A stretch of DNA of 64,000 nt, taken from positions 16,424-80,423 of the forward strand of contig CAZJYZ010000009.1 of the NCBI GenBank assembly GCA_964550345.1, read 5' to 3'. Of this stretch, positions 57,076 to 64,000 are shown piece after piece; the first letter of the stretch is position 1; the number at the start of each line of letters is the position of its first letter. Made by a program: the position numbers and the translations under genes. The notes under the pieces were generated by a model that made no database searches, had not been told where the DNA came from, and saw only the letters and a list, made by a program, of their open reading frames with translations. Source of the DNA: an uncultured Aliiroseovarius sp. GTDB lineage: Bacteria > Pseudomonadota > Alphaproteobacteria > Rhodobacterales > Rhodobacteraceae.

Positions 57076-57261
57076 GATAATCTCCTTGTTTAATCGCCCG
57101 CGCTTAATTCTGTGCGGATCTGACTTCTGCCTGTTTGGAGCATTTCAATTATTGGAATGTTATTTGAAACGCTGCCAAAACACTAGCCACTGCAATCTGA
57201 GGCGAACCATCCCCTTCTCTTTTTAGTGGGCAATCGGGCGCAAAGTTTTTAGGGCTTCAGA

Positions 57262-57300
57262 CAAAAGAAACCCCGGCCCATCAATTCGATGGGCCGGGGT
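57262..57300 (-). terminator. Rho-independent terminator of the TRAP operon (copy 1)
   Basis: Perfect 13-bp stem ACCCCGGCCCATC / GATGGGCCGGGGT with loop AATTC. On the minus strand it is followed by TTTCTTTTG. It lies 35 nt downstream of the large-permease stop. Confidence 0.8.
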
Positions 57301-57334
57301 AACATTAGCTTAAAGCCGGGAATTCTCAGCTTAT

Positions 57335-58783
57335 TTAGTTTTTATAAGCGACCGCCGGCAGCCAGGTTGTAAGTTCTGGCCAGAAGAACACGATCAGAAG
57401 CCCGATCAGCTGCAATATCACAAACGGGATGATACCCCGGTAAATGTGGCCAAGGCTGATACCCGGAGGACAGACGCCTTTGAGATAGAAGAGCGCAAAA
57501 CCCACCGGGGGCGTCAGGAACGACGTTTGCAGCGTTACCGCCACCAGGATCGCGAACCAGACAACCGACGGATTATCGACCACTCCGAAGCCTTCAACCG
57601 GAATATTCAGGCTTAGAATTACTGGCAGCATCAGCGGCATGATGATCAGAGTAATCTCGATCCAATCCAGCAGGAAACCCAGAAGGAAGATGATGAACAG
57701 GATGAAAGCAACCACCATGTAAGGATTATCGAAACTGCCCAAAACAAGGTTTTCAATAATTTCATCTCCACCGAACCGACGCAGGATATAAGAAAAGAAG
57801 TTGGCGGCGATAAAAATCCCGACAATGTACCCCGAGGTGTTCAGGGTTTGACGCATGACGTCCTTGAACACCTTGCCGTTTAGGTTGCGTGAGAACAATG
57901 CCAGCAATGTGGCCCCTAAAGCGCCAAGACCCGAAGCTTCAGTTGGCGTTGCCAGACCAAAGAAGATTGAACCAAGAACCAGGACAATCAGGCCAAACGG
58001 AGGCACAACCGACAGAGCCACTTCACCGACTATCTTAAGATTTATCGCTTCACGATCTTCCGGAACCGGCATGGATTTTGGTGAAATCAAGCCATAAATG
58101 ATGATGAAGGCGATATACAGAACACCCAATAGAAGGCCGGGAAACAAGGCGCCCATGAACAGATCGCCCAGCGATATTGCCAGCTGATCCGACATAATCA
58201 CCAGCATGATCGAGGGCGGTATGAGGATGCCCAATGTACCACTTGCGGCAATTGTGCCGGTGGCTATGGGCTTGGCGTAATTCTGTCCCATCATGGCGGG
58301 GATACCCATCACGCCCAACAGCACGACAGAGGCGCCAATCACCCCGGTCGAGGCCGCAAGGATAATACCGATCAGCATCACCGTAAGGGCAAGACCGCCC
58401 TTGAGCGCGCCAAACAACACCTGCATCGAGCGCATCATCTTTTGCGCCACGCCGGATTGATCCAGCATCAGCCCCATATAGATGAACATTGGCAGTGCCA
58501 CGAGCACCGGATTTTTGATGATCCCGCCGAAAAAGCGCCCGGCATTGGTGTGAAGTTTGATGTAGGAGACACCAGTTCGGTGAAACTCGATATATTCGTT
58601 GATCAGCTTTTTATTTGGATCAAGCACCAGCATCGCGAACATGGCAAAGATCAGGCTGACGCCAACAAGTGCATAAACAACCGGAATGCCGCGAAACAGC
58701 ATAATGACGAAAGTTGCGAACATGGCCAGGACTAGCCACTGGTTCATGTCCATCAACACGCCCATAGCAGAAAGGATTTGCAT
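57335..58783 (-). CDS. TRAP transporter large permease (DctM family; COG4664-like long form), copy 1
   Basis: 482-aa polytopic protein, operon-linked to the DctQ-type and DctP-type genes. Confidence 0.9.
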   Translation of the reverse strand: MQILSAMGVLMDMNQWLVLAMFATFVIMLFRGIPVVYALVGVSLIFAMFAMLVLDPNKKLINEYIEFHRTGVSYIKLHTNAGRFFGGIIKNPVLVALPMFIYMGLMLDQSGVAQKMMRSMQVLFGALKGGLALTVMLIGIILAASTGVIGASVVLLGVMGIPAMMGQNYAKPIATGTIAASGTLGILIPPSIMLVIMSDQLAISLGDLFMGALFPGLLLGVLYIAFIIIYGLISPKSMPVPEDREAINLKIVGEVALSVVPPFGLIVLVLGSIFFGLATPTEASGLGALGATLLALFSRNLNGKVFKDVMRQTLNTSGYIVGIFIAANFFSYILRRFGGDEIIENLVLGSFDNPYMVVAFILFIIFLLGFLLDWIEITLIIMPLMLPVILSLNIPVEGFGVVDNPSVVWFAILVAVTLQTSFLTPPVGFALFYLKGVCPPGISLGHIYRGIIPFVILQLIGLLIVFFWPELTTWLPAVAYKN

Positions 58784-58787
58784 GTGA

Positions 58788-62364: not shown

Positions 62365-62368
62365 GTGA

Positions 62369-63151
62369 TCAGGCCTCGGAACTGGAGCGTCGGCTGATCA
62401 TAAAGCTGACCCCCGCGATGATGAGAATTAGGCCCAGACCATACCAGACCGTGTAGTCGAAAACCGGCTCGCGCGATACCTTGCGCGTGCTCAGCTCGGG
62501 GTTGGAAAGATGCACGATCCACCACAATGCGTAATATGTCGCCCTCTCAGCCAGAAACCAGAAGCCAGGCAGCCCGGCGATGATGATCCGCCAGACAGTT
62601 GGCTTGCCTAACTTTGCCAAGTTGCGAGTAAGCGTCGCGACTGCCGAGATGATCGCGGCTACAAAAAGGAGTGGCATCATGGTTTTCAAAAGAAAGAGAC
62701 CATGTAGCCCGTTGGGGCTGTCAGAACCTTCCCGTGCCTGAATAGACGAAAACGCATAGTGCATCAGGACGTCCGTCATGATTACCAGGAAAGGAAGCAA
62801 CAACCAGCCAAGCCCAAAGACCTCAATCCGCGCCTGTTTGCGTAGGCTGTAATGGGCGTGGAAGATATCCACCCGTACATGGCTGTTCGTGGTAATCGCA
62901 TAGCCGAATGCGGCGATCATCGCGATGCCATACATCCACCACTGCAAGTCATCGAGCCAGGCCTGATTGTGTCCCATTTTGCGGATCACGACCTGTGTGA
63001 CAATTGCCACCATCAGGAGTGGAAACAACCAAGCCAGGACATTGCCAATATTGATGACCAGGCGATCACCCCAGAGATGCTCTTTGCGATTCATCTCGCC
63101 GGGATCGGAGATCTTGATCACCTCTTCGACGTCAATGTCGGTGCCGGACAT
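62369..63151 (-). CDS. TRAP transporter small permease, copy 2 (identical)
   Basis: Translation is identical to 58788-59570. Confidence 0.8.
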   Translation of the reverse strand: MSGTDIDVEEVIKISDPGEMNRKEHLWGDRLVINIGNVLAWLFPLLMVAIVTQVVIRKMGHNQAWLDDLQWWMYGIAMIAAFGYAITTNSHVRVDIFHAHYSLRKQARIEVFGLGWLLLPFLVIMTDVLMHYAFSSIQAREGSDSPNGLHGLFLLKTMMPLLFVAAIISAVATLTRNLAKLGKPTVWRIIIAGLPGFWFLAERATYYALWWIVHLSNPELSTRKVSREPVFDYTVWYGLGLILIIAGVSFMISRRSSSEA

Positions 63152-63227
63152 TATTTCTACTCCCCTGTTTTAAATGAGGCGGCCACCCGAAGGCAGCCGC
63201 CAGCAAATCGCTTCACGTGACTGGTTA

Positions 63228-64000
63228 TCAGTTACGCGGCAGGTAGATCGATGACCAGACCTTGTAACCAGCACGGTAATCCTGCAGGTCAGCCCAAACT
63301 TCCTGGAAGAACGGATCGTCAGCCGACAGTTCTCCAACAACCTCGTCCCAAGCACCTTCGAACGCAGCCAGCATTTCCGGCGACCACTGCTTGATGGTCA
63401 CGCCGTTATTTTCCTGGTTGTCGATCATGGCGGCGTAGTTGGTGGCTTCACCTTCCGCCAGGTTGGTGGTGATGGTAGCCAGACAAGCTGTTTCGATCTG
63501 CGCCTGAGAGATCTCATCCAGATCTTCCCAAACATCGCCATTGATCAGCAGTTCGAACAAGGTCGAGGGCTGGTGCCAGCCGGGGAAGTAGTTGAACTTG
63601 GCAATCTTGTGGAAGCCAAGACGCGCATCAATGCGTGGCATCGAGAACTCGGTCGCGTCGATCGCGCCGCGCTCAAGCGCCGGGAAGATATCACCAGCAG
63701 CCAACAGAGACGTCGAAACGCCCAGTTTCTGCATTGCTTTGGCACCCAGGCCAAAGAAGCGCATGTTCAGACCTTTGAGGTCTTCAACCGAGTTAATCTC
63801 GTTCTTGAACCAACCGGAAGTTTCCGGGGCGATAACACCACACGGGATGGCGTGTACGTTGTAGCCGGCATCGTCATACATCTGCTGCCAGTATTTGGCA
63901 CCATCGTCGTAGAGGATCCAGCCGAGGAATTCGCCAGCTTCCGGACCAAATGGTACAGCCGCGAAAAGCGAGGCTGAATTGATTTTACCCTGCCAATAGC
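63228..64000 (-). CDS. TRAP transporter substrate-binding protein, copy 2; N-terminal part lies beyond the window
   Basis: Identical to the C-terminal part of 59647-60684. The frame is open to the window edge. Confidence 0.85.
   Translation of the reverse strand, partial: YWQGKINSASLFAAVPFGPEAGEFLGWILYDDGAKYWQQMYDDAGYNVHAIPCGVIAPETSGWFKNEINSVEDLKGLNMRFFGLGAKAMQKLGVSTSLLAAGDIFPALERGAIDATEFSMPRIDARLGFHKIAKFNYFPGWHQPSTLFELLINGDVWEDLDEISQAQIETACLATITTNLAEGEATNYAAMIDNQENNGVTIKQWSPEMLAAFEGAWDEVVGELSADDPFFQEVWADLQDYRAGYKVWSSIYLPRN

Follow-up and report, generated by a model that had tools for sequence, protein, structure and literature searches.

The 64,000-nt stretch of DNA analysed here (the window) comes from an uncultured Aliiroseovarius sp. 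and corresponds to positions 16424-80423 of an 80,803-bp contig, designated C9. Its right-hand end is occupied by two head-to-tail copies of a 3,581-bp unit carrying a complete operon for a tripartite ATP-independent periplasmic (TRAP) transporter. The inner copy, copy 1, spans 57212-60792, and its dctP upstream region abuts a novel junction at 60792|60793 (feature 60787-60798, ...GACCAGACTTCAA|CCCTTCTCTTTTTAG...). The outer copy, copy 2, starts at 60793, is cut by the window edge at 64000 and runs on to the equivalent of C9:80796, reaching the contig end at 80803 (would-be window position 64380). Comparison of 57212-60419 with 60793-64000, at an offset and period of 3,581 bp, gave 0 mismatches in 3,208 compared bases, and left of 57212 the identity between the copies fell abruptly to chance level. 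A 3.2-kb exact repeat of this kind cannot have arisen by chance, and identical head-to-tail copies with one novel junction are the arrangement that characterizes a tandem duplication. No insertion sequence (IS) was found at the junction, nor were the same-orientation IS copies expected of an IS-mediated event present at the unit ends or at the join. These results bear out a first-pass annotation made from the letters of the window, which had reported an exact repeat at +3581 from 57212, the junction at 60792|60793 and the lack of an IS there (the only IS5-family element lies beyond copy 2). Its account of the unit as a terminator, a 482-aa and a 260-aa permease, a binding protein and 108 bp of upstream DNA was likewise correct in every part.

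All three genes of the operon lie on the minus strand. The large permease gene dctM (482 aa; 57335-58783, in copy 2 60916-62364) matched PF06808 at 2.2e-64, with 218 bits against a cut-off of 23.8, and TIGR00786 at 2.8e-76, just under the cut-off of the latter model. The small permease gene dctQ (260 aa; 58788-59570, in copy 2 62369-63151) matched PF04290 at 5.1e-11 (43 bits, cut-off 28.3), and the gene for the periplasmic solute-binding protein, dctP (59647-60684, in copy 2 from 63228 to past the window end), matched PF03480 at 1.5e-35 (123 bits, cut-off 23.4). With the ATG at 60684 as start codon DctP comprises 345 aa, and with a GTG farther upstream 364 aa; it has a signal-like N-terminus (MKSITLAAIAGIALSGGAASAQ). 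Only 4 nt separate dctM from dctQ and 76 nt separate dctQ from dctP. A family-7 binding protein with adjoining DctQ and DctM subunits is the make-up of a three-component TRAP system of the DctP type. Pfam annotation of the unit revealed no recombinase or replication gene.

The solved structures closest to DctP were 2hzk and 2hzl (8e-55; 2hzk over residues 4-340), followed by the ketoacid-binding protein 7ug8 (2.3e-49). Like Rhodobacter sphaeroides TakP (2hzk/2hzl, deposited as 'SmoM') and 7ug8, it belongs to the alphaproteobacterial periplasmic receptors of the DctP family (family 7) in a three-component dctP-dctQ-dctM arrangement. It differs from TakP-type systems in its long DctQ (260 aa), and the likeness is one of overall sequence similarity only. 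Our best guess from this similarity is that DctP binds a 2-oxo acid or monocarboxylate. The operon is widely conserved across Rhodobacteraceae, with DctP at 75-92% amino-acid identity.

The unit also carries its own control elements. A strong intrinsic terminator with a 14-bp stem, 10 G-C pairs and a T-run lies 3' of dctM on the minus strand (57270-57300); its counterpart in copy 2 (60851-60881) is situated between the copies. At the other end, the unit includes 108 bp 5' of the dctP ATG, and an inverted repeat TGGTAA-N7-TTACCA (60753-60771, equivalent to 64334-64352 in copy 2) is located 57-75 nt 5' of this ATG in both copies. The related motif TGGTnA-N7-TnACCA is conserved across many Rhodobacteraceae genera with unchanged spacing to the dctP start codon; examples are the orthologous operons of Parasedimentitalea, Cognatishimia, HTCC2150, Amylibacter and one same-genus genome. 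The inverted repeat is a probable operator of a dedicated regulator.

The boundaries of the unit coincide with a 6-bp microhomology, CCCTTC, which is present at the junction (60793-60798), at the start of copy 1 (57212-57217) and at positions 32-37 of another contig of the same genome, C70 (10,782 bp). The first 31 nt of C70 are the end of the unit, and CCCTTCCTCTTACC... follows, so that its CCCTTC makes up the first 6 nt past the unit in an undisturbed right flank. Since C70 starts with the unit end, the undisturbed order must be left flank (L, the AsmA flank), unit, right flank (R, C70). Copy 2 equals copy 1 through unit position 3467, and the first difference occurs at position 3468 (would-be window position 64260, about 260 bp past the window). 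Within its last ~115 nt there are three substitutions and one indel: dctP codon 3 is altered synonymously (AAG>AAA), GCGA becomes GCGG in the dctP leader, a single C is gained or lost, and A becomes T in the spacer of the inverted repeat. Full divergence sets in ~45 nt before the unit end, and past CCAATATT copy 2 is unrelated to copy 1.

Haplotypes and copy number in the population

The genome that contains the window amounts to 3.27 Mb in 106 contigs. The same proteins recur on contigs of many Joint Genome Institute (JGI), European Nucleotide Archive (ENA) and Logan metagenome assemblies, which identifies the genome as a metagenome bin; named relatives put it among the Rhodobacteraceae. Among its 212 contig ends, 59 overlap another contig by exactly 55 nt and 18 by 54 nt, marking a de Bruijn assembly whose final k was 55, and the assembler was probably metaSPAdes. 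When the coverage of an edge falls below 1/10 of that of its neighbours, metaSPAdes disconnects it by removing one k-mer (PMC5411777); the 54-nt overlaps fit this treatment of weak edges. The study codes allow a guess, given no weight here, that the samples are linked to Cariaco Basin MAGs (PMC9902471, a metaSPAdes co-assembly). The only long repeats in the assembly are the TRAP unit and a tandem duplication on contig C29, described below; all others were collapsed.

To place the two copies in the population, ten contigs retrieved by exact-protein look-up were classified by diagnostic k-mers and alignments. Three of them (L029, L031 and L032) carry the same upstream sequence as C70, which we term the R haplotype. 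Another three, namely the 72.8-kb JGI contig L030 as well as L033 and L035, carry an alternative, T, which has the operator and everything downstream of it as in R, then diverges and enters an IS5-family element ~12 nt on. The T upstream segment lies past the window end (C9:80683-80803, continuing in L028:1-1900) and includes this ~0.8-kb element (DDE_Tnp_1_5) with terminal repeats GGCYTTGTTGCACAAAT. Beyond it, the T flank holds tRNA-Gly(TCC), a C-terminal nanA fragment and an IS481 fragment, and this part past the IS was not found in the bin. Copy 1 ends R-type and copy 2 T-type, and the single-nucleotide polymorphisms (SNPs) of copy 2 are the T alleles of the single-copy contigs L030 and L033. 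The first-pass annotation had suggested that the copy number may exceed two. This gained no support: the contig has no sign of a third copy, and copy 2 takes on the T upstream sequence, after which the contig ends. We also considered whether the last 40 nt of C9 merely contain homopolymer-type errors and rejected this, as the same sequence occurs in L028, L030, L033 and L035, leading into the IS.

A 15-nt imperfect direct repeat, AAWCTTACCAATATT, adjoins the operator and recurs as the first 15 nt of C70. C70 begins with AAACTTACCAATATT, and the T-type copy ends with AATCTTACCAATATT ahead of the divergence. The R-flank contigs of three assemblies, C70, ENA scaffold_5331 (10,782 bp) and JGI Ga0118721_1006234, share one end point, the base at C70 position 1; a low-coverage gap between C9 and C70 was therefore rejected as the cause of the break. 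This sequence arrangement suggests that T may be R with a mobile segment inserted into the dctP upstream region and bounded by this direct repeat. Among the contigs examined, none joins the far end of the putative segment to C70. Look-ups with a 106-aa open reading frame (ORF) of the R flank gave nothing on record.

The left flank L (56275-57211, minus strand) consists of an AsmA-family N-terminal ORF (56275-57075) and its leader of 136 nt. It is present once, and nearly all other assemblies also have it next to the unit. The AsmA-family gene as a whole (55081-57075, minus strand) is broken into two ORFs, one of 266 aa for the N-terminal part and one of 389 aa for the C-terminal part, with 24 nt between them. 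All other contigs of the population that cover both ORFs (L028-L032) show the identical split, which thus represents a real feature, either a pseudogene or a two-gene form, rather than a sequencing error. A left-hand variant, L', seen only in other samples, arises from a different repeat element inserted 11 nt inside the unit start (window 57222/57223), after the terminator region (L035:3544-3698, L036:3422-3682). The first 101 nt of this element are 100% identical to C77:51-151, copies of 79-91% identity lie on C56, C78 and C73, and the start of an ORF follows. Mobile-element ends thereby bracket the operon on both sides in L035.

Upstream of the dctP ATG, R and T have only ~80 nt in common, and single-copy contigs of each haplotype exist, from which we infer that the promoter and the operator lie inside the 108 bp included in the unit. 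With terminator, conserved operator and ribosome-binding site all within the unit, each copy would be expressed independently, shielded from its neighbour by the intervening terminator, and a real duplication would double the dosage of the operon.

The comparison with related genomes that the first-pass annotation proposed showed one copy in all six same-genus genomes covering the operon (~75% nucleotide identity), with fragments only in two more. One copy with either R or T upstream was likewise found on other metagenome contigs of the population (at least seven, among L029-L037). The single copy is therefore the ancestral and common state. The junction was detected in one further contig, ENA scaffold_178 (82,595 bp; assembly ERZ23499059, SAMN11854489), in the order L, unit, junction, unit, T; this scaffold runs 1.8 kb farther into the T flank than C9. 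A scan of JGI metagenome contigs for a junction 30-mer returned 0 matches and was uninformative, as a control 33-mer present in L029-L032 also returned 0.

A second tandem duplication was observed in the same bin, outside the window. It is near-exact, with a period of 2,748 bp, and occupies C29:10373-15878 (L026:3374-8879). The unit covers a TP_0789/LolA-like gene and a MacB/FtsX permease gene, its breakpoints fall within a TetR-family gene and another FtsX gene (MacB/FtsX), and the join lies at a 5-bp microhomology, GAAAC (junction sequence GGACCTGCATGAAACCAGCTTC). This junction recurs in ENA SAMN10231901 scaffold_286 and in contig Ga0118720_1037094 of JGI sample 3300009374. The latter is a closed cycle, its first 119 nt being the same as its last 119 nt, and this end overlap points to another k, and probably another assembler, than in the k=55 assembly. 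In JGI 3300009106, the C29 unit is single-copy. The recurrence of the C29 junction in other assemblies, together with the single copy elsewhere, indicates that sample-polymorphic tandem duplications joined at microhomologies exist in this population.

Origin of the TRAP junction

With moderate confidence, we interpret the TRAP repeat as a real tandem duplication, formed very recently at a microhomology and polymorphic in the population, which entered the assembly as part of a consensus contig mixed from several strains. Recombination at CCCTTC, of the RecA-independent type, would yield a head-to-tail duplication of the complete, self-contained dctPQM operon. Because the junction bears R-type upstream sequence, the event would have occurred on an R-type chromosome (AsmA flank, operon, C70 flank), and in this wild marine population of Rhodobacteraceae only some members would carry the duplication. 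The contig would then trace a consensus path of the metaSPAdes type through a graph that mixes strains, entering from L, passing through the unit, the junction and the unit again, and leaving through the T upstream sequence. Such a walk, from L through a unit with R-type end and the junction to a unit with T-type end, uses each graph edge once and would leave the R flank orphaned as a contig of its own, which is what we see in C70.

One argument for this interpretation comes from the shortness of the overlap at the join. An assembly artefact would be expected from a repeat of at least k nucleotides common to the end and the start of the unit, and here only CCCTTC is shared, at k=55. Since a 6-bp overlap is far below the k values of 21-55, shared sequence could not have produced a graph edge, and the join needs reads that contain the junction. 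The nearest other breakpoints lie 11 nt (L') and ~45 nt (T) inside the unit and none falls at its boundaries, so that a gap-joining step would have had no vertex there unless junction k-mers were present in the reads. A rare chimera is also unlikely, since metaSPAdes drops edges below 1/10 of the coverage and the junction edge was kept. The precedent of C29 and its recovery at a different k is indirect evidence by analogy that likewise leans toward a real TRAP junction. On these grounds the junction is inferred to be read-supported, and the duplication to be chromosomal and not fixed.

Several observations weigh against this interpretation, and its main rival is a false duplication, in which no molecule with two copies exists and the assembler, a scaffolding step or a merging step chained the R and T versions of a single-copy operon, the junction stemming from a few chimeric reads or from a gap join across a short overlap. 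The bin mixes strains at precisely this locus, as its R, T and L' variants show; copy 1 and copy 2 carry upstream ends from two lineages, a pattern of composite false duplications in metagenome-assembled genomes (MAGs); copy 2 sits at the contig end, with the R flank orphaned as C70; and for a clonal genome, two exact tandem duplications within a single bin of 3.3 Mb are many. The junction is absent from the other nine operon-bearing contigs shown, and scaffold_178 probably derives from the same reads as C9, given its almost identical extent (82,595 vs 80,803 bp), and perhaps from the same assembler, so that we give it no weight as independent sampling and the junction is seen only in assemblies that probably share reads. 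The SPAdes gap joiner accepts overlaps down to 6 nt, which is exactly the length of the microhomology. However, such a join would require one edge ending at CCCTTC and another starting at 57212, and the passage from L into the unit is continuous and unbranched at that point; 6 bp are too short to form an edge at k=21, 33 or 55; and rare chimeras should have been lost where edges below 1/10 of the local coverage are cut (PMC5411777). Moreover, the reproduction of the C29 junction in the different-k assembly of another sample shows that joins of this type in this population are not inventions of the assembler. We regard a false duplication as less likely than a real one, yet as a serious rival.

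A real duplication might also be present exactly as assembled, the contig being literal for one genome: L, copy 1 with R-type end, junction, copy 2 with T-type end, the inserted segment (IS5, tRNA-Gly and more) and the C70 flank. The duplication would have come first, followed by insertion of the mobile segment upstream of the outer copy, which makes this a sub-case of our favoured interpretation with the phasing as assembled. The same order does appear in both C9 and scaffold_178, and the matching of the C70 start to the end of the T-type copy before the divergence is what such an insertion would leave. The three R-flank contigs stop at one base whatever the assembler, as expected at a true divergence point, and one sample, JGI 3300009375, gives a contig of T, unit and L together with an R-flank contig of this kind. 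Nevertheless, an exact repeat of 3.5 kb is too long for short reads to phase, and copy 2 may truly sit beside the IS or may have been put there by the assembler. The far end of the putative segment has not been seen joined to C70, simple insertion does not account for the T-type SNPs in dctP codon 3 and the leader, and the T flank past the IS is absent from the bin, all of which make a literal contig rather unlikely. Very improbable, in turn, is an origin of the junction from an extrachromosomal circle or a high-copy array of the unit instead of a two-copy chromosomal duplication. The idea draws on the C29 unit, which forms an isolated closed-cycle contig in JGI 3300009374 and thus suggests a cycle that far out-covered its flanks in that sample; against it, the TRAP unit was not found as a contig closed into a cycle, L035-L037, which are unit-sized, terminate at T or L' breakpoints or at R/T and L/L' divergence points and not at the junction, and the unit is free of recombinase and replication genes.

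Two further candidates were rejected. An IS-mediated duplication does not agree with a join made without an IS. An older, fixed duplication with later mutations was dismissed because the sole differences between the copies are T alleles clustered in the last 115 nt. The first-pass annotation had named SNPs between the copies as the sign of such an older event. Differences do indeed appear past the window, but they are allelic T variants known from single-copy contigs and not mutations acquired after the duplication. Its alternatives of ongoing amplification or mis-assembly also survive in part: the evidence leans toward a real junction, yet the contig is not a clean picture of a single chromosome.

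Implications and comparison with known systems

If the amplification is real, it represents a natural case of transient gene amplification, a process known mainly from laboratory selection, at a nutrient-uptake operon of an uncultured marine roseobacter. Taken with C29, it would suggest that polymorphisms of this kind can be mined from metagenome graphs. Tentatively, the wild population may harbour very young tandem amplifications as standing variation, at no fewer than two transporter loci simultaneously (the TakP-like TRAP operon and the LolA-like/MacB-type ATP-binding cassette module of C29), reflecting in-situ dosage variation under selection. Were this so, dosage variation would be visible directly in metagenomes and would not be a laboratory phenomenon. 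If the duplication is false, exact tandem duplications at the ends of MAG contigs should not be counted as gene-family expansions. In either case, the operon count is uncertain, C70 belongs beside the locus, and the upstream end of copy 2 comes from a different haplotype. The event is of a known kind and concerns a well-known transporter family, which makes the finding an ordinary one whether the duplication is real or false.

False duplications in strain-composite MAGs, where metaSPAdes builds a consensus backbone (PMC5411777), resemble the TRAP repeat in three respects: strain variants at the locus, copy ends belonging to two lineages, and a block that touches the contig end. The TRAP repeat differs from them in that it has no repeat of at least k nucleotides to loop through and in that its 6-bp join falls at no other breakpoint.

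The closest parallel to the favoured interpretation, a real and very recent duplication, is provided by enterobacteria. Spontaneous microhomology-mediated (RecA-independent) tandem duplication and amplification has been studied in Salmonella and E. coli, for example at lac or transporter genes under nutrient limitation. The present case differs from these in being known from a metagenome consensus contig and not from a clonal culture, and in having its outer copy on the flank of another haplotype. It shares with them identical head-to-tail copies, a single IS-free join in 5-6 bp of microhomology, and the inclusion of whole genes with their own control regions. Like them, it is missing in relatives and in the greater part of the population, a distribution that fits an unstable and recent event.

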